A stretch of DNA of 32,000 bases, taken from positions 4,470,001 through 4,502,000 of the forward strand of contig NC_009483.1 of assembly GCF_000016745.1 (NCBI RefSeq), given 5' to 3'. This stretch comes from Geotalea uraniireducens Rf4. Its GTDB lineage: Bacteria > Desulfobacterota > Desulfuromonadia > Geobacterales > Geobacteraceae. Shown piece by piece: positions 1 to 28,399 of this stretch; position 1 is the first letter of the stretch, and each line of letters opens with the position of its first letter. The translations under genes were made by a program, and so were the position numbers. The notes under the pieces were generated by a model. That model did no database searches. It was not told the DNA's origin and saw only the letters and a program-made list of their open reading frames with translations.

Positions 1-894
1 ATGGGGAACATTGAAGGCCTCGATGGTCTTGACGACGGCGGTTTTATTGGAGGGTGAAAACACCACGGTATCGCCGACCCGCAGGACTCCGGCAGCAAGC
101 CGGCCGGCAATGATGCGGCGGGCGTCGAACTTGTAGACATCCTGCACCGGAAAGCGGAGCGGCAGGTCTTCGCCGGTCGGCAGCTTCTCAAAGAGACCGA
201 GGCTTTCCAATACCGTAGACCCCCGATACCATGGCATGGCATCACTGCGCCGCACCACGTTGTCGCCGTTCCTGGCGCTGGCTGGGATAAACTGCTGCGG
301 CGAGACGCCCACCCCCTTCAGGAATGCCCCGTACTCTTCGACGATGGCGTTAAAGACCTGCTCGTCATAGCCGACCAAGTCCATCTTGTTGACGACCACC
401 GCAATCTGCCGGATCCCCAGGAGACTGAGCATGTAGCCGTGGCGCCGCGACTGTTCGCGCACCCCTTCGGCAGCATCGATGATCAGCACCGCCGCCTCGG
501 CCCTGGCAGCGCCCGAAATCATGTTTTTCAGGAACTCCTTATGCCCCGGCGCATCTATTATTATATACTGCCGGTTTTCCCAGGAAAAAAAGGTGCGGGC
601 GGTATCGATGGTAATCCCCTGCTCCTGCTCTTCGAGAAATGCATCAAAGAGGAAGGCGTACTCAAATGCCTTTCCCTGTTGCTCGCAGATGGCGCGGACC
701 TTCTCCAGCTGCCCATCGGGAAGGGAATCGGTGTCCGCGTAGATGCGCCCGAGAAGGGTGGACTTGCCGTGGTCCACGTGACCGACTATTACTACGGTGA
801 AGGCGGTCGATGGTGGATGGTGGATGGTCGATGGTGGATGGTCGATAGTCGTTGGTGGATGGTCATTTGTTGATGGGCTCACGCTATTTTTCAT
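1..894 (-). CDS. cysN: sulfate adenylyltransferase subunit 1 (CysN-type GTPase); 3' end runs off the window
   Basis: Absent from the ORF track because it is truncated. My minus-strand translation reads [51 protein letters not shown]...[11 protein letters not shown]...VVNKMDLVG, which carries the G1/G3/G4 GTPase motifs. It lies directly downstream of cysD. ATG at 894-892, alternative GTG at 882. There is no in-frame start codon downstream of the heptamer array. Confidence 0.85.
802..864 (-). repeat. tandem heptamer array, 9 units (plus strand GGCGGTC GATGGTG GATGGTG GATGGTC ...); translated as the CysN N-terminal tail
   Basis: Period-7 repeat read directly. It is inverted relative to the array at 1287-1413. 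Three heptamers make one 7-aa repeat ([21 protein letters not shown]). Confidence 0.9.
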
Positions 895-1255
895 ATTTGA
901 CTCTCAGTGATTTTATGAGCGCATTGAGCTGCTTGCGGATGACTACGGTTTCTCCGAGTAGTGTCTCAGCTTCAACTGCATACCCCAGTTTTTGTGCAAC
1001 AATCAATTGGGTCTCAAGTTCGGCAGCAGAACCACCGGCAATGGATAAGAATCGGATAAACTCCCGATTGCCTTGCCTTCCTGCCCCTTCGGCAATGTTC
1101 GAAGCGATTGAGACCACTGACCGCTTAATCTGGTCGGCCAGACCAAAGTGCTCATCCAGAGGGAATTTTTGAAGTATTCCATAAACAGACACTGCCAGAT
1201 TGACTGAACGCTGCCAGACATCAAGTTCCTTATAGTCCCTTATTTTCTCCACCAT
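884..1255 (-). CDS. four-helix-bundle protein (23S rRNA intervening-sequence protein / Avd-like family)
   Basis: 123-aa ORF. The motif [36 protein letters not shown] is the signature I associate with the TIGR02436/PF05635 family. Its stop overlaps the cysN ATG by 11 nt. Confidence 0.85.
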
Positions 1256-1286
1256 TCACCGCCTTTACCTTTACCATACCTTTACA

Positions 1287-1413
1287 CATCATCTGTCATC
1301 CGTCATCCGCCATCCGCCATCCGCCACCGACCACCGACCACCGACCATCGACCACCGACCATCGACCGCCGTTCAGCCATCGACCGCCGTTCAGCCATCG
1401 ACCACCGACCGCC
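1287..1413 (-). repeat. tandem heptamer array, about 18 units (plus strand CATCCGC/CACCGAC/CATCGAC types, with an internal 17-nt sub-repeat x2)
   Basis: Period-7 repeat that fills the whole spacer between the cysD stop (1416-1418) and the four-helix-bundle ORF. It is complementary in type to the array at 802-864. Confidence 0.9.
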
Positions 1414-1415
1414 TC

Positions 1416-2213
1416 TCACATATACCCATCCTTCCTCAGCTTCTCCATCCCCCGGTCCGCATCCTGTGCCCTGCCGGAGCGTTCCGCAACCTTTGTGTTG
1501 CGCAGTTCCGCGATGATTTCATCCACATTCTTCGCCTTCGATTGAATGGTGCCGGTACAGGGCGCGCAACCGAGACTTCGATAGCGGGTCCCGTTCCCCT
1601 GGTCAAAATAGAGCGGGATGACCGGAATATTTTCTTTCTTGATGTATTCCCAGATATTGATCTCGGTCCAATCCAGGAGGGGATGGATCCGGACATGGGT
1701 GCCCGGCTCGAACCGGGTTTTGAACTGGTCCCACAACTCGGGTGGCTGCTCGCGGAAATCCCAGTCGTTGTTCTTGTCACGGGGAGAAAAATAACGCTCC
1801 TTTGCCCTGGTTCCTTCCTCATCGGAACGGACGCCGACAATGACCCCGTTGTACCCCTTATCGGCAAGGGTTCGGCTCAAGCCTTCGGTTTTAAGTGCGG
1901 TGCAGCACTCCATTCTACCCAGGGAAGGGTTCATGCCAGCCTCAAGGGCTTGCCGGTTCTGCCCCACCACCAGGGTCAAGCCCCATTCCTCGGCCAGCCT
2001 GTCACGGTAGGCGATCATCTCCCGGATCTTGAAGGAGGTATCGATATGCACCAAAGGTATCGGGCAATGGCCGAAAAACGCCTTCCGCACCAGCCAGAGC
2101 ATAACCGTCGAATCCTTGCCGATGGACCAGAGCATGCAAAGGTTGTCGAAATTCTTGTAAGCTTCGCGCAATATATATATGGATTTGTCTTCCAGCTCTT
2201 CGAGATGCTTCAT
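1416..2213 (-). CDS. cysD: sulfate adenylyltransferase subunit 2 (CysD, PAPS-reductase/ATP-PPase fold)
   Basis: [22 protein letters not shown]...[13 protein letters not shown] (SxGKDS PP-loop)...[12 protein letters not shown] place the start at Met31 of the track ORF (2213), because the upstream 30 codons are heptamer-array sequence. Confidence 0.9.
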
Positions 2214-2224
2214 GGGTAACCCCT

Positions 2225-2253
2225 GTCGGCGGTCGGTGGTCGGCGGTCGATAG
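2225..2253 (-). repeat. heptamer array, 4 units (plus strand GTCGGCG GTCGGTG GTCGGCG GTCGATA), immediately upstream of the cysD start
   Basis: Read directly. 2241-2253 is the perfect reverse complement of 2331-2343. Confidence 0.85.
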
Positions 2254-2319
2254 CAAAACTGCCGCACCCCATACACCACCAACCAAATATATTCAATCAC
2301 CAACCTGTTTTATACCATT

Positions 2320-2405
2320 CCGACTATCGACTATCGACCGCCGTCCGCCGTCAACCGTCCGCCGTCAACCGTCCGCCGTCAACCGTCCGCCGTCTGCCGA
2401 CCGCC
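2320..2405 (-). repeat. heptamer/14-mer array, about 12 units (plus strand CGACTAT x2, then CGTCCGC CGTCAAC x3-4), covering the cysC stop
   Basis: Read directly. The last about 13 codons of cysC ([10 protein letters not shown]) are encoded by the array. Confidence 0.9.
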
Positions 2406-2991
2406 TTTCGACAAACCTGATGATCGCAGCAACGGATTCTTCCACACCAAGGCGGCAGGTATCGATCACCAGTTCGGGGGCTTGCGGTTCTTCATACGGG
2501 CTGTCTATGCCGGTGAACTGTGGTAATTGGCCGGCCCTGGCCTTGCGGTAGAGCCCCTTTGGGTCGCGGCTCTCGCAGGTATCCAGATCGCATTTGACAT
2601 AGATCTCGATAAATTCGGCGGGCTCGAAAAGGGCCCGCACCCGATCCCTGTCTTCCTGGTATGGAGAGATGAAAGCAGCCAGGACGACGATTCCCGCATC
2701 GACGAAAAGCTTCGCCACTTCGCCGATACGCCGGATGTTCTCGCGACGGTCCGCTTCAGAGAAGCCGAGATCGCTGTTCAGGCCATGACGCATGTTATCG
2801 CCGTCGAGAATATAGGTGTAGCACCCTTTTTTGAAGAGCGCCTCTTCAGCCGCGTGGGCGAGCGTCGACTTGCCGGACCCGGAAAGGCCGGTAAACCACA
2901 CGACCAACGGTCGATGACCGTTGCGGTCGTAATAATCGGCTTTTGTGAGGGAGCGACTATGCCAGACAATATTCAAACCATTTTCAGCCAT
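2365..2991 (-). CDS. cysC: adenylylsulfate (APS) kinase
   Basis: P-loop GLSGSGKST and [18 protein letters not shown], typical of CysC. The ATG at 2991 has a GGAG 8 nt upstream and is preferred over the GTG at 3006. Confidence 0.9.
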
Positions 2992-3198
2992 AAATAATTT
3001 CTCCACTAATGACCAGTTTTTGCTCAGCCGTATTTATCATGCTTGAAATATAAATATTAAATCAACCACAAAAAAAACTCCAGCATTATGAATTTCTCAC
3101 CGATGCGCGACTACGGAATCAGGAAAAACCATTTCAGAACAGGAGCGCTGATTGGGCCGAAAAGGCTTTTAATCACCGGCCGATTATGCTATTAATTT

Positions 3199-3222
3199 TT
3201 AACAGCCTGAAAAAGCTGTTAA
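3199..3222 (+). promoter_or_regulatory. palindrome TTAACAGC-N8-GCTGTTAA, candidate enhancer-binding-protein site
   Basis: Perfect 8-bp arms, about 50 bp upstream of the candidate -24/-12 element. Confidence 0.3.
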
Positions 3223-3271
3223 CCACGATGCACAAGATGAACACCTCGAAAAGATTCAACCATCAACCCCA

Positions 3272-3289
3272 TTGGTTTCGATTTTGCAT
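3272..3289 (+). promoter_or_regulatory. candidate sigma-54 (-24/-12) promoter TGGTTTCGATTTTGCA
   Basis: GG (3274-75) and GC (3286-87) have exactly the consensus TGGCACG-N4-TTGC spacing, about 75 nt upstream of the 3362 start. Only the GG-N10-GC core and TTGC match. Confidence 0.35.
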
Positions 3290-3361
3290 AAATCAGGGAA
3301 AGAATTTTCAATTACACCATTAAATTACATAGAGACAACGTAAACGGAAGAGGAGGAAACC

Positions 3362-5185
3362 ATGTATTTCAGACTCATTACAGGCCTCATAGGTATGCTT
3401 ATGTGTGCAACTTTCGCCAATGCGGCGCCATACGCATACATCACAAACCTCAGTGATAACACCGTATCGGTGATCGATGTCGCAACGAACGGCTATATCA
3501 GTAAAATACCCTTGGGGACCGGCGTGAAGCCATACGGCGTGGCGATCAGCAGTGACGGCACACGCGTCTATATATCCAATCAGACCAGTAAAACCATTTC
3601 GGTTATTGACGCATTGACCGATCCGAGCAACCCGTCGGTCATCAATACGATCAGCCTGCCGAACACACCCAGCGGTTTAGCTGTCAACTCCGCGGGAACG
3701 CGGCTCTATGTGGCAAACTATGACGCCATGTCCGTTTCGGTAATTGACCTCACGGCTCCTACACCCAACATAATCGCATCCCCCGGCGTCGGAACGGCAC
3801 CGATCGGTGTGGCCATCAGCCCGGACGGCGCAACCGTTTACGTGACAAATTCCGGCAGCGACAACATTACTGCCGTAAAAACGTCTGACAATACCGTATT
3901 AACAACGTTTTCGGCAGGTCCGGCAGGTAACGCCCCGATGGGGATCGCCCTTGGAAAAGTAGGGACCGTAACCAAAATTTATGTCGCAAACAATACGGCC
4001 AACTCCCTTACGGTTATCAACGAGTCCACCAAGGCCATAACCAACACCGTTCCGCTTGGCACAGACTCTGCGCCTTTCGCTGTTGCAGCCAAGCCTGACG
4101 GCAGCACAGTGTACGTTACCAAATCGGGTGCGGCAACCAACGGCGGCGACAGCGTGGCCGTTATCGACACCTCTACCTTCACGGTAACAACCGCCATAAG
4201 CGTCGGAGCCATGCCGTTCGGCGTTGCCGTATCACCCGACGGCTTCCGCGTCCTGGCAGTGAATAACATGGGCAACAGCGTCTCCGTCATCAACACAAGC
4301 TCAAACGCTGTTGCAGCCACACTGGGCAATATTCCTGATACCAGCTACGCAAGCTTTTTCCAATCCCCGCAGAGTCTGGGCAACTTCATCGGCCCGCAAC
4401 TGTACGCGATCGAAGCAAGTGCAGGCGCCAACGGCACCATTACGCCGGCCGGAACCATATTGAAAGCCGATGGAACCAGCCAGACTTTCACGTTTACCCC
4501 CGCGGTCAACTACCGCATCGACAAGATAAATGTGGACGGAAGCATCGTCTCGCCAACGCCGACCGCCGGCTACACTTTCAACGCGATAACAGCAGCGCAC
4601 ATTATTACGGCGACTTTCATCAAGGATGATTATTACGTTTCCATCACCAAAACCGGCACTGCAAGCGGCACGGTTACCAGTACGGATATCCCTAGCACTA
4701 TCAACTGCGGTGCAACATGCGACGGTACGTTTAGCAACGGTACCACTGTCACTCTCACCGCCGTTCCCGATGCCGGTAAATATTTTGCCGGGTGGATCGG
4801 CGACAGCACCGCACCCGGCGTCAGCGTGTGCGACGGCGTGACGTCCACCACATGCACCTTCACCATGACCGCCTACACCCATGTAACCGCGAATTTCTCC
4901 GCTACAGAGTTATCTAACAAGGTGAAGATGATGCCACAGGGCAGCTTCTTTTCCACCCTCCAGGCCGCCTTTGACGCTGTAACACCAACCACGACCACGA
5001 TCATGACCACCATCGAGTCGTTTAGCGAAACGCTCAACCTAAACAAAGCCGGTACAACGTTTACATTGAGCGGCGGCTGGCTCGACAGAACATATACGTC
5101 ACGTGGGACGGCTCCAAGCGTGTATCAGGGATCACTGACCATTACCAACGGCACCTTGATCGCCGACAATATCGCCATCAAATAG
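3362..5185 (+). CDS. secreted YVTN-family beta-propeller repeat protein with C-terminal bacterial (InlB-B-like) repeat domains
   Basis: Strong SD (GAGGAGGA). Signal peptide ...CATFANA/AP. Repeated about 40-aa units (VYVTNSGSDNITAV, VYVANNTANSLTVI, VYVTKSG...). Later GTVTSTDIPSTINCGATCDGTFSNGTTVTLTAVPDAGKYFAGW. Confidence 0.8.
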   Translation: MYFRLITGLIGMLMCATFANAAPYAYITNLSDNTVSVIDVATNGYISKIPLGTGVKPYGVAISSDGTRVYISNQTSKTISVIDALTDPSNPSVINTISLPNTPSGLAVNSAGTRLYVANYDAMSVSVIDLTAPTPNIIASPGVGTAPIGVAISPDGATVYVTNSGSDNITAVKTSDNTVLTTFSAGPAGNAPMGIALGKVGTVTKIYVANNTANSLTVINESTKAITNTVPLGTDSAPFAVAAKPDGSTVYVTKSGAATNGGDSVAVIDTSTFTVTTAISVGAMPFGVAVSPDGFRVLAVNNMGNSVSVINTSSNAVAATLGNIPDTSYASFFQSPQSLGNFIGPQLYAIEASAGANGTITPAGTILKADGTSQTFTFTPAVNYRIDKINVDGSIVSPTPTAGYTFNAITAAHIITATFIKDDYYVSITKTGTASGTVTSTDIPSTINCGATCDGTFSNGTTVTLTAVPDAGKYFAGWIGDSTAPGVSVCDGVTSTTCTFTMTAYTHVTANFSATELSNKVKMMPQGSFFSTLQAAFDAVTPTTTTIMTTIESFSETLNLNKAGTTFTLSGGWLDRTYTSRGTAPSVYQGSLTITNGTLIADNIAIK

Positions 5186-5210
5186 CAGTCAACTTAAACA
5201 TAAACAGATA

Positions 5211-5245
5211 AAAAGGGCGGTCAATTAATGACCGCCCTTTTTTTA
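5211..5245 (+). terminator. rho-independent terminator
   Basis: GGGCGGTC-loop-GACCGCCC followed by TTTTTTT, 26 nt after the stop. Confidence 0.85.
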
Positions 5246-5481
5246 TTCAGTTTCAGCGTTGTCCGGTTTGGTTTTTGCTTACGTCCCGTAGGGACAGAAT
5301 ACTGGTAGCCGGGGAATTCATTCCCCGGTCATCCAGGCGAAATATCATCACGTCACGTACGTGACGTGGGGAAATATAGCATCTCATCCGGGGGATGAAT
5401 CCCCCGGCTACATTCGAACGCCCCTAATGGGGCTTAACAACCTTGATGCACAAACCAAACCGGACAACGCTGATTCAGTTT
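5245..5481. mobile_element. MITE-like element: 219-bp body (5254-5472) with perfect 21-bp terminal inverted repeats, flanked by a 9-bp direct repeat
   Basis: TIR CAGCGTTGTCCGGTTTGGTTT (5254-5274) is the reverse complement of 5452-5472. ATTCAGTTT occurs at 5245-5253 and 5473-5481. No ORF inside. The interior is a pseudo-palindrome of five hairpins. Confidence 0.6.
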
Positions 5482-5508
5482 ACAAATAAACTATCCCTCG
5501 CAGAAGCG

Positions 5509-5604
5509 CTCACTCCTCACTCCTCACTCCTCACTCCTCACTCCTCACTCCTCACTCCTCACTCCTCACTCCTCACTCCTCACTCCTCACTTCTCACTTC
5601 TCAC
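5509..5604 (-). repeat. tandem heptamer array, 13-14 units (plus strand CTCACTC x11, CTCACTT x2; minus strand GGAGTGA)
   Basis: Perfect period-7 run. The stop codon and last 6 codons of the glycosyltransferase at 5587..6804 lie inside it. Confidence 0.95.
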
Positions 5605-6804
5605 GGCCTTTAAAATTCCCCGGTAGATTTCCAGAAGCGTCTCTCCCCTGGCCCGCCATGAATGGTCACGCTCCGCCTTCTCACGGACTTTCCTGGCAAA
5701 CGATTCCCGGCCGGCTTTATCGGCAGCCAGCTCTTCAATCCGGGTCGCCAAATCTGCCGCATCCGCAAAGCGCGCATAGACGCCGGCATCACCTAGAATT
5801 TCCCGGTTTATCGGCGTATCGAAAACCACCGTAGGCAGAGCGCACGCCATGTAGTTGAACAGCTTGCCGTTCGCCTCTGTCAGCGATATTTTCGGTGAGA
5901 CGGCGATATCACAGGCTGACAGATATAATGGCGCCTCCGCATAGTCAATCCTGCCGGTAAAGCTGACCATTTCATCCAGACCCAATTCCCTGCATTTATG
6001 GATGTATTGATCCTCAGGGAACCCCATGATCAGAAAATGAATTTGCCCCTTTCGCTCACGCAGAAGCGCAATGGATTCCAAAAGGATGTCTATCCCCTGA
6101 TAACGGTTAAGTAGCCCGAGAAAAGCAACGATAGGCACATCCAATGGGAGTTGCAGCGCACTGCGACATTCGTTTTTTTCGTAAGGGCGAAATACCGCTG
6201 TGTCCACACCATCGATAACGGCTTTAACCTTATGGTCAGGCACCTGCCAATGGGTGACAAGGTCGTGGGCGCCGGCACTGGAACTGGTAATAATAAAATC
6301 AGCCGAATTATTTATGAAATGCTCCAGGGCCGCGAAGCACTTCGCCAAGATGGAGCCGTCATTTATAAAACCATGGTCGGTTATTTCTGCCGTCAAACTC
6401 CCCTGACAATCGAAGATCAAGGGGACGCCCAGCATTTTTTTAAGGAAATAGCCGACGAAAGCGCCTTCGTGAAGGTGCGCATGGATAATGTCCGGAGCAA
6501 ACGACCTTGCTACCTGAAGCGCTTTGAAGAACAGCAGGATGTCGAGATAAGGCTTGTGCCAGGAAGGGCCGGCGGTGAGCTTTTTGTACCAGGGAACCGT
6601 GCAAATCCGGTAGGTGGGGATGCCCGGCATGTCACGCCCCAGATGGTAGGTGACGATGCGCACGTCAACGCCCTGTGATTGCAAGGTCCGGGCTTCTTCA
6701 TAGATACGGACATGACACCCCCGGTCCGAGAAATATGGTGTAGGGGCAAGCATCAATACTTTGAGCTTGCATTCAACCAAGGTTGATCTTTTCCTTGACG
6801 ACAT
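5587..6804 (-). CDS. GT4-family glycosyltransferase
   Basis: 405-aa ORF with KVLMLAPTPYF near the N-terminus and a GT-B-type C-terminal half (...VSPKISLTEANGKLFNYMACALP...). Alternative starts are TTG 6780 (overlapping the upstream stop) and ATG 6753. Confidence 0.75.
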   Translation of the reverse strand: MSSRKRSTLVECKLKVLMLAPTPYFSDRGCHVRIYEEARTLQSQGVDVRIVTYHLGRDMPGIPTYRICTVPWYKKLTAGPSWHKPYLDILLFFKALQVARSFAPDIIHAHLHEGAFVGYFLKKMLGVPLIFDCQGSLTAEITDHGFINDGSILAKCFAALEHFINNSADFIITSSSAGAHDLVTHWQVPDHKVKAVIDGVDTAVFRPYEKNECRSALQLPLDVPIVAFLGLLNRYQGIDILLESIALLRERKGQIHFLIMGFPEDQYIHKCRELGLDEMVSFTGRIDYAEAPLYLSACDIAVSPKISLTEANGKLFNYMACALPTVVFDTPINREILGDAGVYARFADAADLATRIEELAADKAGRESFARKVREKAERDHSWRARGETLLEIYRGILKAVRSEK

Positions 6805-7717
6805 AAATCGGCTTTGACTGGGCCTCGTAATAGGTGCGGGCGTTCAGTTCGCCCAACAGGCCGAGCACGATGAACTGCACCCCCATAAAGAGAAGAAAGG
6901 CAGTCAAAATGAGAAGCGGGTTGCGATTCATGCTCATATGCTCGAACAACTTCATGTATATTGTGGCTGCTCCGCTCAGAAACCCGGCGCCCAACGTATA
7001 TATCCCCCATTTGCCAAAGAGTTGGATAGGTTTTGTCGAGTAGGTAAGAAGGAATTTTACGGTCATCAGATCAAGTATTACCCGCATAGTACGGGAAATT
7101 CCGTATTTACTCGTGCCATAGAGCCTGGGATAGTGCTTTACGGGCAGTTCTGCCACCTTTGCTCCGACCTGCGAAGCAAGGGCAGGTACAAAGCGGTGCA
7201 TTTCACCATACAGGTTTATGCCGTCCAAGACCTCCCGCCTGTATGCTTTCAGCGTGCAGCCGTAATCGTGCAGATATACGCCGGTCATCCTGGAGATGAG
7301 GTAATTGGCGATTACGGAAGGAAGCTTTCGATTGATGAAGGTGTCCTGACGGTCTTTACGCCAACCTGAAACCACGTCATACCCCTCTTCGATTTTGCTA
7401 AGAAGGCGCGGTATGTCACTTGGATCGTTTTGCAGATCGCCATCCATAGGCACTACAACCCTGCCGCAGGCTGCGTTGAACCCAGCGGCCATAGCTGCTG
7501 TCTGCCCGAAGTTACGGCGGAAACTGATTACCTTGACATGTTGGTCCCGTGACGCAATAAGTTTCAGCGCAGCCAACGAGCCATCACTGGAGCCGTCATC
7601 AACAAGAATGAGTTCGTATTCAAGACCGCTGGACTCCAAGGCTTCGCAGACTTTTTTGTAGAGCGCGGGGACATTCTCTTCTTCATTGTAAATGGGTACG
7701 ACTATACTCAAATCCAC
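6773..7717 (-). CDS. GT2 polyprenyl-phosphate glycosyltransferase (GtrB/ArnC/DPM1-like) with 2 C-terminal TM helices
   Basis: IVVPIYNEEENV...LILVDDGSSDGS...PMDGDLQNDP motifs. GTG start with AAGAGG SD. Confidence 0.8.
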   Translation of the reverse strand: MDLSIVVPIYNEEENVPALYKKVCEALESSGLEYELILVDDGSSDGSLAALKLIASRDQHVKVISFRRNFGQTAAMAAGFNAACGRVVVPMDGDLQNDPSDIPRLLSKIEEGYDVVSGWRKDRQDTFINRKLPSVIANYLISRMTGVYLHDYGCTLKAYRREVLDGINLYGEMHRFVPALASQVGAKVAELPVKHYPRLYGTSKYGISRTMRVILDLMTVKFLLTYSTKPIQLFGKWGIYTLGAGFLSGAATIYMKLFEHMSMNRNPLLILTAFLLFMGVQFIVLGLLGELNARTYYEAQSKPIYVVKEKINLG

Positions 7718-11651: not shown

Positions 11652-12365
11652 TTACTTAATGTGGCATTTGAGGCAAAGACCACTGCCTGCAAGCGACCCT
11701 CTCAGGAAAGGTGCGATGGCGTTGTCATGCACGTTGTGGCAGGAGCTGCACTCCATGATGCCGTTCTGGAACGGCAGACCGGTGGCGGCAGTCGTATCTG
11801 CCAAGCTGCCGGGTCTTGCATTATTAACGGTTACCACAGCCTTGGCATAATCAATGTTGACCGGGTGGTCGTTGGTCAGGTCGGTTCCCAGATTTGCCGC
11901 ACCGGTAATTACAACACCAACACCAGCACTTTGCACGTTTGATTGAGCAGCACTTAAACCATACGGCTGATTGTTGAGGGTGGCGCCGCCCATGGTGGTT
12001 GCACCGTCATGGCAGGTCATGCAGAGGAGCGACGTGCTCTTCGTGCTGAACTGGCCCTTAACGGAGCCCTGGAACCAGCCATCCGCAACACTGCCTTCCA
12101 TCATGATACCTGATGTATAGGTGGCAAATGCAGTGTCAGCCGTTGCTCCCTTTCTGTTCCACAGTGCCTTGGTCTTGGCAGAGTTGTGCGGGGTGTGACA
12201 GTAAACGCAGACCTGTGTCGCACCGGAGTTTCCGGCGGAGTACCCGCCCGCTACGCCGTTTCCAAAGGACAGGTCATGCTTTGTGCCGACGATGCTGGCA
12301 GCGAAGGCGCTGCCTGCCATGACGACTGCTGATACCGCTACCAGAGTTGCTAATAACTTTTTCAT
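11652..12365 (-). CDS. omcE: secreted tetrahaem c-type cytochrome, OmcE-like
   Basis: Start moved to MKKLLATLVAVSAVVMAGSAFA (AGGAGGAG SD). Four CXXCH motifs (CVYCH, CMTCH, CSSCH, CLKCH). The KHDLS...CVYCHTPHNS motif is typical of Geobacter outer-surface cytochromes. Size and position downstream of ppcA-resB-ccsA-2 cytochromes-NHL match my recollection of the G. sulfurreducens GSU0612-GSU0618 (ppcA...omcE) locus. The symbol is tentative. Confidence 0.6.
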   Translation of the reverse strand: MKKLLATLVAVSAVVMAGSAFAASIVGTKHDLSFGNGVAGGYSAGNSGATQVCVYCHTPHNSAKTKALWNRKGATADTAFATYTSGIMMEGSVADGWFQGSVKGQFSTKSTSLLCMTCHDGATTMGGATLNNQPYGLSAAQSNVQSAGVGVVITGAANLGTDLTNDHPVNIDYAKAVVTVNNARPGSLADTTAATGLPFQNGIMECSSCHNVHDNAIAPFLRGSLAGSGLCLKCHIK

Positions 12366-12451
12366 CTCTTTACTCCTCCTCTTTCTTGGTTGTTTGTGCT
12401 GCAAGGATTGTTTCCCCAGACACAATTAGTAATCGTATTGAACATTACACT

Positions 12452-12467
12452 AGCAATTCCCGTGCCA
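12452..12467 (-). promoter_or_regulatory. sigma-54 promoter TGGCACGGGAATTGCT
   Basis: Minus strand matches the consensus TGGCACG-N4-TTGCW at every conserved position. It lies 87-102 nt upstream of the ATG at 12365. Confidence 0.7.
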
Positions 12468-12589
12468 CAATCCTTACGCACGTTAACCAACCAATTTCAT
12501 TACAGTATTGTTTATTTACGCTACATACCAACCGGTCATTTCGCCAGCCCACCGATTAACGCAGGCTAATTGACAGTCATTTCACGGCG

Positions 12590-13672
12590 CTATTCCTTCG
12601 ATGCTGCACCCGTCTCAACGGGGTGATTTTTGAGGTAACGCTCATCCATGTACTGAAACATCTGGAAGCGGTAATTCATCTGGTCGACCACGTAGATGGT
12701 GTTGTTCTTGTCGATGAATATCCCCATGGGAAGGAGGAAGCCGCCGGGGGCAATTTTCTGCTCAGAGGTAAACGCTCCACCCACCGTCAGGAGATACTCC
12801 CCCTTGGGAGAAAAGATCGAGAAGGTGTTCCCCTTGCCGTCAACCGCGTAGATATGGTCCTCCGTATCGCGGGCAATACCCTTTATCATCTGGAATTCAC
12901 CGGGATTGTCGCCGCGCGTGCCGAACTTGCGGATGAACTTCCCTGTCGGGTCAAAGAGCTGGACGCGCGTATTAAGAGAATCCGCCACAACAATGGTGCC
13001 GTCCTTCAGGATCGTGGCCCAGGCGGGGACGTTGAACTCCCCTTCCTCCCCTCCACGCTTGCCGAAGGAAAAGAGCTGTTTGCCGGCAAGGTCGATGACC
13101 TCGATTTTATGTCCCTGGGAATCACAGACGATTATCCTTTTCCGCTCCTTGTCGATGGCAATGCCGATCGGCCGCGTGACAAATGCGGCCAGATCGATGT
13201 TGCCCACGGGCTTTTCATCCTTGTTGAAGATAAAGATCTTTTTGGCGTCTGCATCCGCAACATAGATATTGCCGGCCACGTCAATGTCGATCCCCATCGG
13301 CTCCTGAAAAAGCTGCTCCAGATTCTTGCCGAATATATGCACCTTGTTGTTTTTCAGGTCATAGACGACTATTGCATGATTCAACGGGTCACAGACGTAG
13401 ACCAGCCCTTCTCCATCGGCGGCAATACCGCTGGGGCGGTTGAAGGCGATCGGGTCGTCCTTGCCGAAAACGCCTTCGAAAAAGAGCTGCGATCCCGTCT
13501 TCGGCAGGTCGTGCTGGCTGCGATAGGCGCCCAGCCACTCGATTTTCGGGTCATCCGGCAGCGGCGGCCAGTAGAATCTGTGTTTCATCGGGGGAGTGCC
13601 GGCGCATCCCGCCAATAATCCAACCATGATGAGCATCGCGACAATCTTTGTACGCCAACAGAATTCTTTCAT
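12590..13672 (-). CDS. NHL-repeat beta-propeller lipoprotein
   Basis: Lipobox LLAGC. About six repeats of the NHL type (GEFNVPAWATILKDGTIVVADSLNTRVQLFD, GEFQMIKGIARDTEDHIYAVDGKGNTFSIF ...). Confidence 0.8.
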   Translation of the reverse strand: MKEFCWRTKIVAMLIMVGLLAGCAGTPPMKHRFYWPPLPDDPKIEWLGAYRSQHDLPKTGSQLFFEGVFGKDDPIAFNRPSGIAADGEGLVYVCDPLNHAIVVYDLKNNKVHIFGKNLEQLFQEPMGIDIDVAGNIYVADADAKKIFIFNKDEKPVGNIDLAAFVTRPIGIAIDKERKRIIVCDSQGHKIEVIDLAGKQLFSFGKRGGEEGEFNVPAWATILKDGTIVVADSLNTRVQLFDPTGKFIRKFGTRGDNPGEFQMIKGIARDTEDHIYAVDGKGNTFSIFSPKGEYLLTVGGAFTSEQKIAPGGFLLPMGIFIDKNNTIYVVDQMNYRFQMFQYMDERYLKNHPVETGAASKE

Positions 13673-13744
13673 AATTTCTCCTTTTTTACAGCATCAGTTA
13701 GATAATTGCACTGACATCAAAAGCTGTGAAAACTATCTTTTTTG

Positions 13745-13855
13745 CACCCTCCCCCAGCCCCTCCCATCGAAGGGAGGGGAGCTTTTATTCCCTCTCCCTT
13801 GGCGGACCCAAATTGCGGGCCTAAAGGAGAGGGCCAGGGAGAGGAGGGAATGTGT
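13745..13855. repeat. GC-rich nested hairpin element (CCCCTCCC-atcgaa-GGGAGGGG; ATTCCCTCTCCC...GGGAGAGGAGGGAAT)
   Basis: Inverted repeats read directly in the 225-nt spacer between the 8-haem cytochrome gene and the NHL gene. REP-like appearance. Confidence 0.5.
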
Positions 13856-13897
13856 CGGCCTTTTTATTTTCTGAAGAAGAGTAAGTGACGACCAACT

Positions 13898-14890
13898 TTA
13901 TTTATTATGACACATCTGGCAAAGCTGCATCCTGTCTTCGAGATTGTTCTGGAAAAAGTACCGCACATCGCCGCCGTGGGGGTTATGGCAAGATACGCAG
14001 GAAAGCTCCCGGCCGGAACCCGGCCTGGATGGATCCGGTTTGTCCTTGAGCGGATGTCCGGTGCCGTTGGAAGTCCGCACCACATGCGTGTCGACGGCGA
14101 TCGACTCATGGCAGGAAAGGCAGAGCGCATTGATCGGCTGGTGCAGTTGGGCCGGATAATTGCTGCTATGTGCATCGTGGCAGATTTCACACATGCCGGC
14201 TTCAACCGGGCCGTGCAGATACTTGCGCTTCTTGAATTCAGCCGCCTTGTCGGCATGGCAATCGTTGCACAACGCCGCGTCGCGCCGGGGAAGCGCATAT
14301 TTCGGTTTCCCCTGGAGACTGTGACAATAGGCGCAGGAGAAGGTGCCTACCGGTCCATGGACATAATTCAGGTTCGCAATCTTCTTGTGACAAGTATAAC
14401 AGGGGTTTTTCTGGTCGACACTGCCGTCGAGCTGGGCAGTCGTAGGGGTCATGTTATGGCAGGCACTGCAAAGCTTCTCGATTTCAGGAACATGAACCAC
14501 ATTGGGGCGGTATTCGGCAGGAACTGCGGCCGGGTCTCCCTTGAGATTGTAATAAATGTCGGTCGTCGCCGTCTCGATTTTTTTCTCGCCGCTGTAGCCT
14601 TCAACAACAATGTCGTTCTTTCCGGGATCCCAGACCGGCTGCAGAATGAGAAAATCCTGAAAAGCCTTCCTGTATTCCGGCGAGCTTATCAGCATGAGTT
14701 CGCTGGCCAGACCGTTGACGGTTATCCTGACTCCGGTGATTTCAGGGTTGTTCAATTTGAAAATAAGGTAGTCGGTACGTTTGACCCAACTCTTCTGCGC
14801 CGGATAAAGGAAGGTAATCGCCGCTTCGGCGGCAAAGGCCGTCAGGGCCACACTCAACGCTGCGATTGTTGCAAGACTCTTCCAGAACAT
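13898..14890 (-). CDS. octahaem c-type cytochrome (c7/c3-like repeats) with an N-terminal non-haem beta-rich domain
   Basis: Start at MFWKSLATIAALSVALTAFA (AGAGGAG SD). Eight CXXCH motifs. Recurrent HGPV..G.C..CH motif of c7-type domains. Confidence 0.85.
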   Translation of the reverse strand: MFWKSLATIAALSVALTAFAAEAAITFLYPAQKSWVKRTDYLIFKLNNPEITGVRITVNGLASELMLISSPEYRKAFQDFLILQPVWDPGKNDIVVEGYSGEKKIETATTDIYYNLKGDPAAVPAEYRPNVVHVPEIEKLCSACHNMTPTTAQLDGSVDQKNPCYTCHKKIANLNYVHGPVGTFSCAYCHSLQGKPKYALPRRDAALCNDCHADKAAEFKKRKYLHGPVEAGMCEICHDAHSSNYPAQLHQPINALCLSCHESIAVDTHVVRTSNGTGHPLKDKPDPSRPGSGRELSCVSCHNPHGGDVRYFFQNNLEDRMQLCQMCHNK

Positions 14891-14974
14891 AGTAACTCCT
14901 CTTGACGGCAACGAATGGGTGACCAACCGTGGACGGGTCACAGCCCGACGTTGAATAAACCCCGCTTGCTTCTA

Positions 14975-15970
14975 TTAGTCGCCGTATCCGGACCTGTTGT
15001 ATGTCCGGGGTTTATGGCAACCGACTATACATGTCCCGCCGGTTGAGGTTTTTTCGTAATTTATGGGTATTTCCCACCTGCCGAAGCCGGGTATTCTACC
15101 TTTGATGAGCTTTGCCTGGCTGGCAGCATGGGGATCGTGGCAGGTTTTGCACGAACGGCCCTTGCCGGACATGTTGACGTGAAGATAGTGCAGATTCCGA
15201 TCGCCATCACGGAAATTGGTAATGGTATCTGTCCGCCGGTCTGCGGCAAGTTCCCGGTTATGACAATTAAAACATAAGGAAAAATTATCGGCGTTGTAAG
15301 ACATGTAAAAGAATTCGGGGAAGTTGTTGCGCAACAGTTTACGATATTTTGAACCATGGGGCGCATGGCAAGCAACGCAGTCACCTTTTGCAACCGGCGC
15401 ATGAACCGATTTTCCCGACATCCCGGTACGATCATGACAGCTGAAACATAGGGCAGCGCCGCCTATTTTCAATAACATGCGGTTGTCGGACTGATGTGGA
15501 TCGTGACAAACAAGACAATTGCCGGCTACGACCGGCCCGTGACCGAACGTATGCCTGAACTTATCTTCGTGGCACGTAAGACAAAGGGCCGCGCCCCTGC
15601 CTTTCAGCAGCTTTGCGTCAGCAGATGCATGGGGACTGTGGCAGGCGATACAGTCTCCCGAAGCAACGGGGGCATGAACATGTTTTTTACCGGCCAATGA
15701 TTCGTGACACATGTAGCAGAGCTTTGACCCGACCTCGACAAGGGCGACAGAACCCTTTTCATCCGGATGCTGTCCACCCTTGAGAGGCTGGTGGCAGGAG
15801 ACGCACTCGCCGGCGCCGAATGGGGAATGAACGAATTGTTCTTTGCCGATGTCATTGTGACATGCCAGGCAGTTAAGAGTTTCTGCCCTGACGAAATCGG
15901 GACAAGTAAAGGATAAAGAAATGGTTGCAACAAGGGCAGCCGGGAGCAGAAACCTAAAGCTTACACACAT
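14975..15970 (-). CDS. undecahaem c-type cytochrome (10 CXXCH + 1 CX3CH)
   Basis: Signal peptide. CLACH, CVSCH, CYMCH, CIACH, CLTCH, CLVCH, CFSCH, CVACH, CFNCH, CKTCH, plus the C-terminal CIVGCH. Confidence 0.85.
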   Translation of the reverse strand: MCVSFRFLLPAALVATISLSFTCPDFVRAETLNCLACHNDIGKEQFVHSPFGAGECVSCHQPLKGGQHPDEKGSVALVEVGSKLCYMCHESLAGKKHVHAPVASGDCIACHSPHASADAKLLKGRGAALCLTCHEDKFRHTFGHGPVVAGNCLVCHDPHQSDNRMLLKIGGAALCFSCHDRTGMSGKSVHAPVAKGDCVACHAPHGSKYRKLLRNNFPEFFYMSYNADNFSLCFNCHNRELAADRRTDTITNFRDGDRNLHYLHVNMSGKGRSCKTCHDPHAASQAKLIKGRIPGFGRWEIPINYEKTSTGGTCIVGCHKPRTYNRSGYGD

Positions 15971-21122: not shown

Positions 21123-23984
21123 TTACATTATTACAGGATTGCCAGCAAGGGAGTTGTTAGTCTCATCGGACTCGGGGACTTGATTGGTGTAGTCCGCATA
21201 GGCGCCGATGTAATAGTTTCCGGGCGGTAGATTTGGCGGGACCGAGCGGGTTCCGGTAAGAACGACTTCACTGTTGCCAGGAATATTGGCCCAATTTGCG
21301 TCGATAAGATAATCACTGGTAGTTATGGCAGCGTCAGAGGAGATATAGATGGCGGTTGGAAAAGCGTAATTTCCGGCCACACCGTTACCGACATTTTTAA
21401 CAGTCACTGAATAGGTTACTTTGCCGTTCGCCACGGTGCCAGACACGGCGGTTACAATGAGGTCATTGTTGATATATGGCTGGTTGCCAGCAAGGGAGTT
21501 GTTAGTCTCATCGGACTCGGGGACTTGATTGGTGTAGTCCGCATAGGCGCCGATGTAATAGTTTCCGGGCGGTAGATTTGGCGGGACCGAGCGGGTTCCG
21601 GTAAGAACGACTTCACTGTTGCCAGGAATATTGGTCCAATTTGCGTCGATAAGATAATCACTGGTAGTTATGGCAGCGTCAGAGGAGATATAGATGGCGG
21701 TAGGAAAAGCGTAATTTCCGGCCACACCGTTACCGACATTTTTAACAGTCACTGAATAGGTTACTTTGCCGTTCGCCACGGTGCCAGACACGGCGGTTAC
21801 AATGAGGTCGTTGTTGATATATGGCTGGTTGCCAGCAAGGGAGTTGTTAGTCTCATCGGACTCGGGGACTTGATTGGTGTAGTCTGCATAGGCGCCGATG
21901 TAGTAGTTTCCTGGCGGTAGATTTGGCGGGACCGAGCGGGTTCCGGTAAGAATGACTTCGCTGTTGCCAGGAATATGGGCATAATTTGCGTCGATAAGAT
22001 AATCACTGGTAGTTATGGCAGCGTCAGAGGAGATATAGATGGCGGTAGGAAAAGCGTAATTTCCGGCCACACCGTTACCGACATTTTTAACAGTCACTGA
22101 ATAGGTTACTTTGCCGTTCGCCACGGTGCCAGACACGGCGGTTACAATGAGGTCGTTGTTGATATATGGCTGGTTGCCAGCAAGGGAGTTGTTAGTCTCA
22201 TCAAACTCTGGGACTTGATTGGTGTAGTCTGCATAGGCGCCGATGTAGTAGTTTCCTGGCGGTAGATTTGGCGGGACCGAGCGGGTTCCGGTAAGAATGA
22301 CTTCGCTGTTGCCAGGAATATGGGCATAATTTGCGTCGATAAGATAATCACTGGTAGTTATGGCAGCGTCAGAGGAGATATAGATGGCGGTAGGGAAAGC
22401 GTAATTTCCGGCAGCATTTATGCCTCGATTTTGTATCGTTACAGAATACGTCAGCTTCCCGCCGCTGACAGTACCTGAAACATTCTTCACCACCAAGTCG
22501 GGCTGTACGGAGGAGATTGTTATATTATTCCCCAGTTTGGTATTATTAGTTTCATCCCCTTCTACAACAAGATTTGTGTAATCAGCAATAGCCTTCAAAT
22601 AGTAATCGCCAGTCTTGCAAGCCGTTGGAATAATTACTGTGATGCTGCCGGTATCAGGTGTCTTCGGAGCAAGAGATGTGACGGTTCTTTCACCCAAATA
22701 GCAGCTCGTCCCTTTCAAATCGTCGAGATAAATCCCAATTTTGAAAGCAGTGGCTGAGTCAGTCCCTTTGTTGAATGCAGTGGTGGATATTGTAACAGAA
22801 TTACCGATCACCCCCGTTGCAGGACCGCTGACATCGGTGATTTCCAGATCAGTATACGATTCGTAAGCCAGGGTTACGGCATGGAGTACCGGAGTTGTCA
22901 TGTCGCTTGATGAAAGCTTTAATCGCAGTTCCGCAACATGAGCGTACTGGATATTCAAATCAATGCTCGTGGTTTTGGTTTGGATGCCGTTGACCACGGG
23001 TCCGTCGACCGTAGTTGCACCGGAGGTTGTGAGGTCGTACCATGTGTCGGCGCTGCCATCGGGTCCCAGGTACTGGGCACTTTCAAGGGAGGTCAAGTCT
23101 TGAGCGGTTCTGACCTGAAACTGGATTTTCTGACCAGTTGTAAGCTCGTCGTAGTTCCAGGAAAGATGCGCCTTGTCGAAAGGGGCGACCCCGGTGACCC
23201 GGAGCCCACTGAGCATGCTCACCACCGGCTCGATCTCCAGTGATTTCTCAACCTGGTTCGACGCCCCGTCAATGACCGACACGACATTGTTGAATTTGTT
23301 GGTCAGGTAGACCTTGTTGGTGGCCAAGTTATAGGATGCGGTGTAAGGGCCAGCAATCACCTGCACCGTTGCAATGACGGTATCACTGATCCCGTCGAGA
23401 ACGGAAACCGTCTGGTCGGTCATGTTGGCGATGTAGACCTTGTTGTTGGTCGGGTTGTAAAGAGCAGCATTGGCGCCATTGCCAACGGTCACGGTTGCAA
23501 TTACCGTATCAGTGACACAGTCGATGACCGACACCTTGTTGTCGTTGTAGTATCCCACATAGAGCTTGTTATTTACTGAATTGTAAACAGCTCCCGAAGG
23601 TTGCGCCGGTAATGGTATCGAAGGAAGCAACTCTTTCGTCGTTGCGTTAATGACGGCGACGGAGTTCCTTTCCGCCCCAATGGTATAGACTTTGTTGTTC
23701 GAAGTGTTATTGATGATCGTCGCAGTGCTCAACAAATCCTTCGGAATGCCGATTTTCACATCACCAGAAACTGTTGTGGTGTCAATGTTTACGCGCGTTG
23801 TAGGAGTGTTTGTCGTAGAAGCATTGTTTTCAAAATCTGGTTGAGTTGTCCATGTTACTGATGACATTGCTGCACACGCCGGTTGCGCAATACTGCCGGC
23901 TGCTACCGTTAGGCTGACAATTAGCAGGATAATTGTCAGTAGCTGTAACGGTAATTTTTTTAAATTTCCCCAATGATAACCCAT
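21123..23984 (-). CDS. secreted surface protein: YVTN beta-propeller + unknown beta-rich domain + five CARDB-like domains
   Basis: Start placed at MGYHWGNLKKLPLQLLTIILLIVSL... (AAGGAGGG SD; the track ORF starts 90 nt upstream). Signal peptide ...AQPACA. YVTN-type repeats (KVYIANMTDQTVSVLD etc.). C-terminal domains show the CARDB pattern DL.V..VSG...G....V.V.N.G......YIS.D...........G.YY..A.AD....V.E.DETNN. Confidence 0.8.
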   Translation of the reverse strand: MGYHWGNLKKLPLQLLTIILLIVSLTVAAGSIAQPACAAMSSVTWTTQPDFENNASTTNTPTTRVNIDTTTVSGDVKIGIPKDLLSTATIINNTSNNKVYTIGAERNSVAVINATTKELLPSIPLPAQPSGAVYNSVNNKLYVGYYNDNKVSVIDCVTDTVIATVTVGNGANAALYNPTNNKVYIANMTDQTVSVLDGISDTVIATVQVIAGPYTASYNLATNKVYLTNKFNNVVSVIDGASNQVEKSLEIEPVVSMLSGLRVTGVAPFDKAHLSWNYDELTTGQKIQFQVRTAQDLTSLESAQYLGPDGSADTWYDLTTSGATTVDGPVVNGIQTKTTSIDLNIQYAHVAELRLKLSSSDMTTPVLHAVTLAYESYTDLEITDVSGPATGVIGNSVTISTTAFNKGTDSATAFKIGIYLDDLKGTSCYLGERTVTSLAPKTPDTGSITVIIPTACKTGDYYLKAIADYTNLVVEGDETNNTKLGNNITISSVQPDLVVKNVSGTVSGGKLTYSVTIQNRGINAAGNYAFPTAIYISSDAAITTSDYLIDANYAHIPGNSEVILTGTRSVPPNLPPGNYYIGAYADYTNQVPEFDETNNSLAGNQPYINNDLIVTAVSGTVANGKVTYSVTVKNVGNGVAGNYAFPTAIYISSDAAITTSDYLIDANYAHIPGNSEVILTGTRSVPPNLPPGNYYIGAYADYTNQVPESDETNNSLAGNQPYINNDLIVTAVSGTVANGKVTYSVTVKNVGNGVAGNYAFPTAIYISSDAAITTSDYLIDANWTNIPGNSEVVLTGTRSVPPNLPPGNYYIGAYADYTNQVPESDETNNSLAGNQPYINNDLIVTAVSGTVANGKVTYSVTVKNVGNGVAGNYAFPTAIYISSDAAITTSDYLIDANWANIPGNSEVVLTGTRSVPPNLPPGNYYIGAYADYTNQVPESDETNNSLAGNPVIM
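21139..22518 (-). repeat. four tandem 345-bp (115-codon) repeats, nearly identical
   Basis: The same string TTGCCAGCAAGGGAGTTGTT recurs at 21139, 21484, 21829 and 22174, exactly 345 nt apart. Copies 1/2 and copies 3/4 form two sub-pairs that differ by only a handful of substitutions (WANIPG/WTNIPG versus YAHIPG). The 5'-most part of copy 4 diverges. Confidence 0.95.
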
Positions 23985-24073
23985 TTCAATAAACCCTCCT
24001 TTTTTGATTTGGACGCCGAGTATATCGGAATTATGGCGGCCGCTCTTTATTAGCGAGGGTTTATAACACACCA

Positions 24074-24101
24074 CATATTATTATGTACACATAATAATAT
24101 G
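24074..24101. promoter_or_regulatory. 28-bp AT-rich perfect palindrome CATATTATTATGT-AC-ACATAATAATATG
   Basis: Read directly, 90-117 nt upstream of the start of the CARDB-repeat gene. Candidate operator overlapping the promoter. Confidence 0.35.
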
Positions 24102-28350: not shown

Positions 28351-28399
28351 CACTCACTACTCACTACTCACTACTCACTACTCACTACTCACTACTCAC
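28351..28399 (-). repeat. tandem heptamer array, 7 units (plus strand CACTCAC then TACTCAC x6; minus strand GTGAGTA)
   Basis: It fills the alr-selD spacer. The alr stop TGA (28398-28396) is part of the first unit on the minus strand, and the array ends 7 nt before the selD ATG. Confidence 0.95.

Follow-up and report, generated by a model that had tools for sequence, protein, structure and literature searches.

A probable block-exchangeable cassette: a four-helix-bundle gene between inverted heptamer arrays at the cysD–cysN junction of Geotalea uraniireducens

In a 32,000-nucleotide stretch of the Geotalea uraniireducens Rf4 genome (contig NC_009483.1, positions 4,470,001 to 4,502,000; hereafter the window), a 123-aa four-helix-bundle (4HB) gene lies between the sulfate adenylyltransferase genes cysD and cysN and is bracketed by two arrays of mutually complementary heptamers. 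Sequence comparisons across many loci indicate that this arrangement is an instance of a widespread insertion module, in which an Avd-like 4HB gene sits between inverted short tandem arrays, usually with a 7-nt unit. On balance, we lean toward a reading in which the module is a block-exchangeable cassette carried passively on the operon transcript, where translational coupling rescues the downstream gene and the long stem that the arrays can form is a by-product or an accessory feature. The rival explanations, which partly overlap with this one, are weighed below alongside the evidence that bears on each.

All coordinates at the locus are read on the minus strand, on which cysC and cysD are followed by a G/T-rich heptamer array, the 4HB gene and cysN; L-numbers label the contigs and loci compared with it. 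The adenosine 5'-phosphosulfate (APS) kinase gene cysC (3006..2365; Pfam and NCBIfam) precedes cysD, which encodes the small subunit of sulfate adenylyltransferase (2213..1416; Pfam PF01507, PAPS_reduct, 1.5e-41; NCBIfam CysD, 2.5e-111). Two nucleotides after the cysD TGA (1418..1416) begins the proximal (5') arm (1413..1287), an untranslated spacer made of the G/T-rich heptamers GGTCGGT, GGTCGAT and GGCGGAT, in which Tandem Repeats Finder (TRF) resolves period-7 arrays at 1289-1326 and 1324-1371 and an 18-mer repeated 2.7 times at 1359-1407. An inner spacer (1286..1256) ends in a putative Shine–Dalgarno (SD)-like sequence, GGCGGTGA, that abuts the ATG of the 4HB gene (1255..884; PF05635, 1.1e-34; TIGR02436, 6.9e-36). 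The distal (3') arm (864..802) consists of the A/C-rich units CCATCCA and CCATCGA, which TRF reports at 805-864 either as 8.6 copies with period 7 or as a 21-nt unit repeated 2.9 times at 92%. It terminates at the first conserved CysN residue, a phenylalanine. The 5' part of cysN, encoding the large subunit (894..1; Pfam GTP_EFTU, 1.4e-44; NCBIfam CysN), has its P-loop GHVDHGKS beginning at 783, and the gene extends beyond the end of the window.

This anatomy had been proposed in an earlier, sequence-only reading of the same DNA, and most of it stands. The complementary distal array is where it had been placed, the 4HB stop codon overlaps the cysN start as claimed (ATGAAAAATAG, 894..884, with the cysN ATG at 894-892 and the 4HB TAG at 886-884), and translation bears out the assertion that the CysN N-terminus is array-encoded: codons 11-31 are the distal array, and every in-frame ATG, GTG or TTG lies upstream of the array, leaving none between it and the P-loop. 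The proximal array is likewise present, but the figure of about 18 heptamers was loose, because about 12 clean heptamers plus the 18-nt super-repeat are found. An Rfam search of positions 1-6000 (E <= 1) returned no rRNA or other Rfam family in the cassette, a scan of positions 1-3400 for sigma-70 promoters and intrinsic terminators found none between cysD and cysN, and tblastn revealed no second 4HB copy in the window.

When we scanned one genome per species with CysD, both empty and occupied cysD–cysN junctions emerged within the Geobacteraceae. The two closest CysD relatives, an uncultured metagenome-assembled genome (MAG; L001, 95%) and Geotalea sp. SG265 (L002, 93%), carry a 4HB gene at this position, whereas L003-L008, which are other Geobacteraceae MAGs and two Geomonas species, lack arrays and have cysD running straight into cysN through an ATGTGATG overlap. 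Occupied junctions span at least six lineages (the window, L001, L002, L081-83, L086-89 and L176), and the nearest 4HB homologues in a collection of 5.8 billion proteins (99, 75, 68, 66, 63 and 61% identity) all lie between cysD and cysN. Given this breadth, the 4HB gene is not a recent arrival at the site. In a neighbor-joining tree of cysD, built from this single gene and carrying no support values, the occupied L176 pairs with the empty L004. The five lineages that we examined in detail share a G-rich arm directly after the cysD stop that starts with AGGCGGTSG (AGGCAGTGG in L002), and in four of them the C-rich arm reaches the first conserved CysN residue, with L002 retaining only a vestige. 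AGGCGGTSG and CGACCGCC are the conserved outer termini of the cassette, the former shared by all occupied lineages. L176 has the same arms, on a contig that ends within the distal array. In L016, a Nitrospinia MAG from an unrelated phylum, a solo array of six AAGTGAC/AAGTAAC units lies directly after the cysD stop (6802-6848), perhaps what is left of a cassette or what one arises from.

Between near-identical strains, the array–4HB–array block differs as a whole. The window and L081 have 98-100% identity per 60 nt across cysC, cysD and cysN; amino acid identity is 98.1% for cysC, 99.6% for cysD (synonymous divergence dS 0.072) and 99.2% for the cysN core, but the 4HB proteins are only 65.5% identical, with saturated synonymous sites (pS 0.80), and the arrays are unalignable. 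Across this divergence island (1345..785), identity per 60 nt falls from 97-100% to roughly 30-65%; its left breakpoint lies within the array, after the first shared units, and its right breakpoint at the P-loop codons. Each of the two alleles is present on three independent assemblies. At 87% identity the L081 4HB protein matches its counterpart in L086, a locus whose cysD is only 95% identical, and the window 4HB is closest to that of L002 (75%), so the phylogeny of the cassette is incongruent with that of the flanking genes. From these alignments, the array–4HB–array block appears to be gained, lost and replaced as a unit, and its arrays appear to expand and contract rapidly.

The same architecture recurs far beyond this operon. 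Using a profile of 36 4HB sequences, we retrieved 80 metagenome loci, 65 of which had 150-nt flanks on both sides. Across these, the median flank–flank duplex energy was -66 kcal/mol against -47 for mismatched pairs (p = 5e-14), and inverted 6-mer sharing exceeded the 99th percentile of same-locus windows in 24 of 65 loci, compared with 9 of 65 in the direct orientation. Tandem periodicity was detected upstream in 33 and downstream in 37 of the 65, against 2.9% of control windows, with period 7 the commonest, followed by 8 and 9. Where both arms were periodic they almost always shared the period (34/35 loci; 21 +/- 2 expected), and the unit consensuses were complementary within one mismatch in 20 of 34 loci (10% under the null; 3/34 in the direct orientation). 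GC skew was positive upstream in 55 of 65 loci and negative downstream in 56 of 65, and the module has its G/T-rich arm 5' of the 4HB gene and the A/C-rich complement 3'. These statistics hold after de-duplication at 80% identity into 58 clusters: a short-period array flanks 53 of them on one side or both, the outcome of a test that the sequence-only reading had itself proposed, and among the 33 with arrays on both sides the period is shared in 32 and the units are complementary in 20.

Both neighboring genes are co-directional in 33 of 42 loci, and homologues at 54-60% identity lie between co-directional operon genes, flanked by inverted short arrays whose unit sequence is specific to the locus. 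Intra-operonic examples include nrdB-4HB-nrdA, gmd-4HB-epimerase, NUDIX-4HB-epimerase, ftsW-4HB-murG and cas6-4HB-cas4, and a further homologue lies 3' of a gene encoding 767 aa. On Nostoc edaphicum plasmid pNe_5 the order is nrdB, eight copies of GGGAGTA, 4HB, five copies of TCCCTAC and nrdA, the 4HB gene running antisense to its host operon; on plasmids of two other cyanobacteria, the arrangement in Calothrix PCC 7716 is similar and also antisense, and Pseudanabaena galeata has cas6, arrays, 4HB, arrays and cas4. Arm polarity follows the orientation of the 4HB gene even in the two antisense cases. Taken together with the empty sister junctions and the block differences between strains, these bracketed homologues in many phyla sustain the earlier proposal that the cassette is an insertable unit rather than an ordinary operon gene, and they give the finding a wider reach than that reading proposed.

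Could the 4HB gene nevertheless be an ordinary accessory gene of the operon, with arrays that are lineage-typical slippage repeats in unconstrained spacers? Heptanucleotide repeats are known from intergenic and intragenic Geobacter DNA (PMC2700814), the window itself holds solo arrays and a pair of arrays without cargo (described below), and array copy number changes quickly. However, slippage predicts neither the complementary units (20/34 against a 10% null, and 3/34 in the direct orientation), nor the equal periods (34/35) and fixed polarity (55/65), nor the recurrence of one arrangement in phyla of very different GC content. Arrays are also enriched beside 4HB genes: the density of stringent arrays is 7.7 per 10 kb at distances of up to 250 nt from such a gene, about 16-fold above the 0.49 per 10 kb in the remainder of these contigs. 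We therefore strongly disfavor coincidence and regard it as very unlikely.

The encoded protein is a bona fide member of PF05635/TIGR02436, scoring well above the curated cut-offs (119.2 bits against 33.8 for PF05635; 122.8 against 24 for TIGR02436), with the predicted fold of XCC0516 and BT_0352, which is structurally related to the Avd protein of diversity-generating retroelements (DGRs). An AlphaFold2 model has four helices and a mean confidence (pLDDT) of 93.9, and Foldseek aligns it to 2GSC at a template-modeling (TM) score of 0.89-0.93 and to 2RLD at 0.75-0.84. The match of the monomer model to bAvd is looser (TM 0.66-0.83, probability 1.0, E of about 0.07-0.2), and many 4HB homologues also match PF22296, the bAvd family. 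By phmmer the protein hits 2GSC at E 2.5e-22; identity to XCC0516 is 40%, and to bAvd only 11-15%. Of the family motif GxxRxxxSxxxNxxE (PMC3936711), the R-x3-S-x3-N-x2-E portion is present as R45, S49, N53 and E56, with Q42 at the place of the leading glycine; across the 36-sequence alignment R45, N53 and E56 are invariant and S49 is at least 90% conserved. Among the database records consulted, the family is labeled 'four helix bundle protein' or 'S23 ribosomal protein'. With a dN/dS of 0.13 between L081 and L086, the gene is, as judged from codon substitutions, a real protein gene under purifying selection. A search of 50,697 phage records for phage carriage of the 4HB gene gave no match.

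The sequence-only reading had also predicted that the arms close a long imperfect stem, and the folding check agrees. RNAfold of the minus-strand RNA of 780-1420 (641 nt) gave a minimum free energy (MFE) of -252.1 kcal/mol, a value that none of 20 dinucleotide shuffles equaled (z = -6.09). The MFE structure joins the arms by 65 pairs, and the partition function gives an expectation of 63. The outer pairing of 1413-1395 with 820-802, checked by hand, comprises 17 Watson–Crick pairs, one G–U and one C–C mismatch, exactly as described. A long stem was also predicted in five of six other loci that we folded, with 63-109 inter-arm pairs. G/T-rich and A/C-rich arms cannot self-fold, which favors long-range pairing, so that the insert could fold out as a hairpin domain. 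Inter-arm transition mismatches are not biased toward G–U in the sense RNA (75 vs 108), and this comparison of sequences offers no support for selection on a sense-RNA helix. We also considered whether the arrays might generally form G-quadruplexes, an idea that we rejected because many arrays lack G runs; the Geotalea arms have only GG tracts, and arrays such as GGTTAAAA, TAGTACT and TTTTGGT have no G runs at all. Mimicry of SD and anti-SD sequences (GGTGAT and ATCACC units) is likewise not universal among the arrays.

A stem of this kind led the sequence-only reading to compare the unit with processed rRNA intervening sequences (IVSs). Under such processing, the arrays would pair in the cysCDN transcript and be cut by RNase III, freeing a 4HB stem-loop RNA and splitting the cysD and cysN messages. 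The stems predicted here and at five of six further loci fit this account, as do the inability of the arms to fold on themselves and the tying of arm polarity to the 4HB gene; the PF05635 family does occur in rRNA IVSs that have a terminal-repeat stem cut by RNase III (PMC4990558), and rRNA insertions in the candidate phyla radiation (CPR) carry the same protein family (PMC11270868). By a rough method, moreover, the arms lie before the downstream ORF in 32 of 45 loci, and where they are purely intergenic, as at most of these other loci, excision would spare both neighboring cistrons. At cysD–cysN it would not. The only start codon of cysN lies inside the loop, so cleavage of the stem would decapitate cysN, which argues against complete excision here, and the lineages keep that start in frame. 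The absence of G–U enrichment among transition mismatches and the persistence of the 4HB gene in L002, which has nearly lost its distal arm, also weigh against processing, and we consider it improbable as an explanation of the locus.

The stop/start overlap is kept in the five lineages checked, with the cysN frame open from start to P-loop, and this conservation suggests that 4HB and cysN are translationally coupled. In seven sequence variants from the five lineages, the array-encoded extension of CysN ranges from 21 to 94 codons, each in frame with the sole upstream start. Where contigs share the same 4HB protein, their arrays differ in length by multiples of 39 nt, so the cysN frame is preserved. 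Since the start stays in frame however much the arrays vary in length, some portion of the transcript, at the least, has to remain whole so that ribosomes can read across the distal arm. A parallel case is ftsW-4HB-murG (L180, on at least 10 contigs), where inverted arrays of ACTTGAG and GTCTCAT types at 2425-2470 and 2836-2870 form the last ftsW codons and the first murG codons (MSHVSHISS...), as in cysN. Array-overlapping downstream ORFs were counted in 13 of 45 metagenome loci, a rough figure and an overestimate, as any open frame was counted from its earliest start and A/C-rich arrays contain no stops. Gene calls reflect the same repeats: cysN is called at 615-672 aa across loci, the L081 4HB gene (4001-4477) is called as 158 aa on an ORF that is open through the upstream array, and several metagenome contigs start or end inside an array (L084 and L085 at position 1; L175 and L176 at their ends).

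That inverted arrays might instead turn the segment around, so that a RecA-type mechanism flips the 4HB gene together with the start of cysN and makes expression phase-variable, would be in keeping with inverted repeats of 60-130 bp at both sides and with the cyanobacterial plasmid cassettes, which are antisense with unchanged arm polarity, as inversion predicts. Yet all cysD–cysN occupants on all contigs are in the sense orientation, and inversion here would abolish cysN translation; we judge an invertible segment to be the most implausible of the explanations considered.

A further possibility is that the protein recognizes its own arrays. An Avd-like 4HB pentamer could bind them as RNA or DNA, for autoregulation, for protection, or for making or copying arrays together with a host polymerase or reverse transcriptase (RT), in which case protein and arrays would co-evolve. 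The class of array (unit sequence and period of 7, 8 or 9) does follow the 4HB clade, but this covariation equally fits co-inheritance in host lineages of similar GC content. A GTGA core recurs in 36 of 95 array units (2.7 expected), but it is absent from the Geotalea arrays. Even more than 250 nt from the gene, 4HB contigs have about 45 times more arrays than 879 kb of 4HB-free cysD-centered loci, where the rate is 0.011 per 10 kb. The plasmid matches are mostly from Nostoc and Calothrix and the XCC0516 structure is from Xanthomonas, all of them among the taxa reported to be heptamer-rich (PMC4692102), although this overlap is phylogenetically confounded. Avd itself is an RNA- and RT-binding pentamer in the DGR ribonucleoprotein (PMC10053308), and the 4HB model matches its fold; no RT is encoded nearby among the ORFs tested or the called genes of L081-L089. 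We therefore treat recognition of the arrays by the protein as rather unlikely.

We return to the cassette reading, under which the events would be as follows. The module would have entered a coupled cysD–cysN junction, ancestrally ATGTGATG, in the ancestor of the Geotalea-like lineage. Its replacement would most likely proceed by homologous recombination, with repeats and conserved flanks serving as homology, and breakpoints would fall in the arrays or in adjacent conserved codons. Riding on the cysCDN transcript, the 4HB gene would be translated from the array-derived SD-like sequence, cysN expression would be rescued through the stop/start overlap, and ribosomes would read the distal arm, now a variable and probably disordered N-terminal extension of CysN. 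The stem would then be either a by-product of inverted ends or an accessory feature, with insulation, RNase III trimming or protein binding as possible uses.

Several observations weigh against this account. Neither the module nor its immediate surroundings encode a recombinase, transposase or RT, among the ORFs tested and in related loci, and comparison of empty with occupied junctions reveals no evident target-site duplication. Wherever identical 4HB proteins were found (13 and 9 contigs), their neighboring genes were the same, so there is no sign of recent transposition, a reading that we set aside; movement is seen only over evolutionary time. The arms are not strictly required in pairs, since L002 combines a long proximal array with only a vestigial distal arm and the L016 junction holds a solo array without a 4HB gene or a complementary arm, and the solo arrays of the window indicate that arrays are not exclusive to the cassette. 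The metagenome sample is limited to homologues 43-61% identical to the window 4HB. Finally, the blocks might have been exchanged simply because a divergent allele recombined by ordinary homology, in which case the arrays have no special property.

We nevertheless see a substantial chance that the module is a distinct, general class of element. A more ambitious version holds that the cassette and its heptamer arrays (7-9 nt) form a phylum-spanning, block-exchanged class in operons and rRNA genes, and that the Avd-like protein is the trans partner of the heptanucleotide arrays of cyanobacteria, Xanthomonas, Geobacter and other taxa, binding them and, with host polymerase, RT or RNase III, governing their spread or processing. 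We offer this version tentatively and doubt it more than we believe it.

The window contains other repeats. In the cysC–cysD spacer, overlooked in the sequence-only reading, lies an inverted array pair of the same family without cargo (2405..2225, minus strand), with a G arm at 2405..2321, a loop of about 70 nt and a C arm at 2249..2225. Its G arm starts with AGGCGGTCGG and supplies the last 11 codons of cysC, and the pair folds with an MFE of -82.1 (z -2.4). It is kept in L081, L086 and L176 with variable arrays and is hypervariable between the window and L081. We looked for a remnant of the 4HB cassette in the loop, where local alignments were no better than shuffles. Two solo arrays of GTGA type have no complementary partner nearby: one at 5509-5604 (GAGTGAG ×13.7 on the minus strand) overlaps the 3' end of a GT4 glycosyltransferase ORF (5587..6804), and the other at 28352-28399 (AGTGAGT ×6.9 on the minus strand) lies between two minus-strand ORFs. 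At 31325-31349, GGGACCT is repeated 3.6 times, the same type as the GGGACCG four-copy elements of Geobacter metallireducens (PMC2700814). A longer tandem repeat (345 nt ×3.7, 98% identity) occupies 21139-22412 within a minus-strand ORF of 983 aa (21123..24074). Motifs resembling Acido-Lenti-1 RNA (RF01687) at 5282-5328 (minus strand) and 5388-5434 (plus strand), scoring 32.8 and 36.3 bits under a gathering score of 37, sit in the convergent intergenic region between a beta-propeller gene and a glycosyltransferase gene. Farther along, 11652-15970 holds genes for multihaem c-type cytochromes (Paired_CXXCH, MtrC/MtrF-like domains) together with one for an NHL-repeat protein, a cluster in keeping with DNA of Geobacteraceae origin.

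PF05635/TIGR02436 is a very large family with no assigned function, members of which have been noticed in rRNA IVSs, cas operons and polysaccharide loci without explanation. If the 4HB gene and the arrays are one cassette, both old puzzles, the protein family and the repeats, would gain a context. Such a cassette would account for 4HB genes between subunit genes of conserved operons, would offer a route to variable, repeat-encoded protein termini (CysN here, MurG in L180) and could tie rRNA IVSs, stand-alone Avd-like proteins and DGRs together at the level of mechanism. A practical effect is that the arrays break metagenome assemblies and lead gene callers to extend ORFs through them. A full-text literature search, with most subscription journals outside its reach, found no paper linking PF05635/TIGR02436 to heptamer arrays.

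Among known systems, repetitive extragenic palindromes and bacterial interspersed mosaic elements (REP/BIME), miniature inverted-repeat transposable elements (MITEs) and integron cassettes are hairpin-forming elements between operon genes, and a MITE is the cargo-less partner of an insertion sequence. The cargo-less cysC–cysD version beside a cargo-bearing one, and the exchangeability of the latter, recall the MITE relationship. The arms here, in contrast, are built of 7-mer arrays, which is the layout of neither a lone palindromic unit nor an attC site, and we saw no REP-associated tyrosine transposase (RAYT), other transposase or integrase, no target duplication and no identical copies elsewhere.

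Heptanucleotide simple sequence repeats are closer to the arms themselves. Such arrays are described in Calothrix, as GGGNATC in Xanthomonas and Nostoc (PMC4692102), as TAACTGA in Beggiatoaceae (PMC4679880) and as GGGACCG-type repeats in Geobacter metallireducens (PMC2700814); term searches of PMC4692102 and PMC4679880, and the passages of PMC2700814 consulted, turned up no four-helix-bundle, 23S or S23 protein. The likeness extends to period 7, tandem arrangement, position in intergenic DNA or at gene ends, unassigned function and occasional convergent inverted pairs, and to copy number that varies between close relatives (here between contigs with identical 4HB proteins and between the window and L081). 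What differs is that the arrays here form complementary pairs of fixed polarity around a 4HB gene. The 4HB protein is probably homologous to the DGR protein Avd (bAvd, PDB 4DWL; ribonucleoprotein 8UB7), a pentamer-forming four-helix bundle, as the monomer fold match suggests, although in sequence it is much closer to the stand-alone XCC0516 than to bAvd. The neighboring genes are cysC, cysD, cysN and genes for a beta-propeller protein, glycosyltransferases and cytochromes; no RVT domain or template/variable repeat was found nearby, in the tested ORFs of the window or the called genes of L081-L089, and with no RT domain in the tested ORFs or related loci we rule out that the locus is itself a DGR.

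The closest parallel is the rRNA IVS. The IVS of Coxiella burnetii has a 28-bp terminal-repeat stem that is cut by RNase III (PMC4990558), the 23S IVS of Leptospira carries an S23p/PF05635 ORF (Ralph & McClelland 1993, as reported in PMC4990558), CPR rRNA insertions carry the protein family (PMC11270868) and 23S_rRNA_IVP genes appear without explanation in cas operons (PMC3936711). The module shares with these elements the protein family, complementary termini predicted to close a long stem, a position inside a transcribed, essential unit, and a sporadic distribution in which some sites are occupied, others are empty and horizontal exchange is indicated. It differs in that its host is a biosynthetic mRNA with cysD and cysN as flanks in place of 23S helix 9, 25 or 45, that hypervariable tandem arrays of heptamers take the place of one 28-bp inverted repeat as its arms, that its distal arm encodes the N-terminus of the protein from the following gene, and that excision by RNase III would harm cysN. 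By analogy, the module is probably an IVS-like element of mRNAs whose arms are heptamer arrays.

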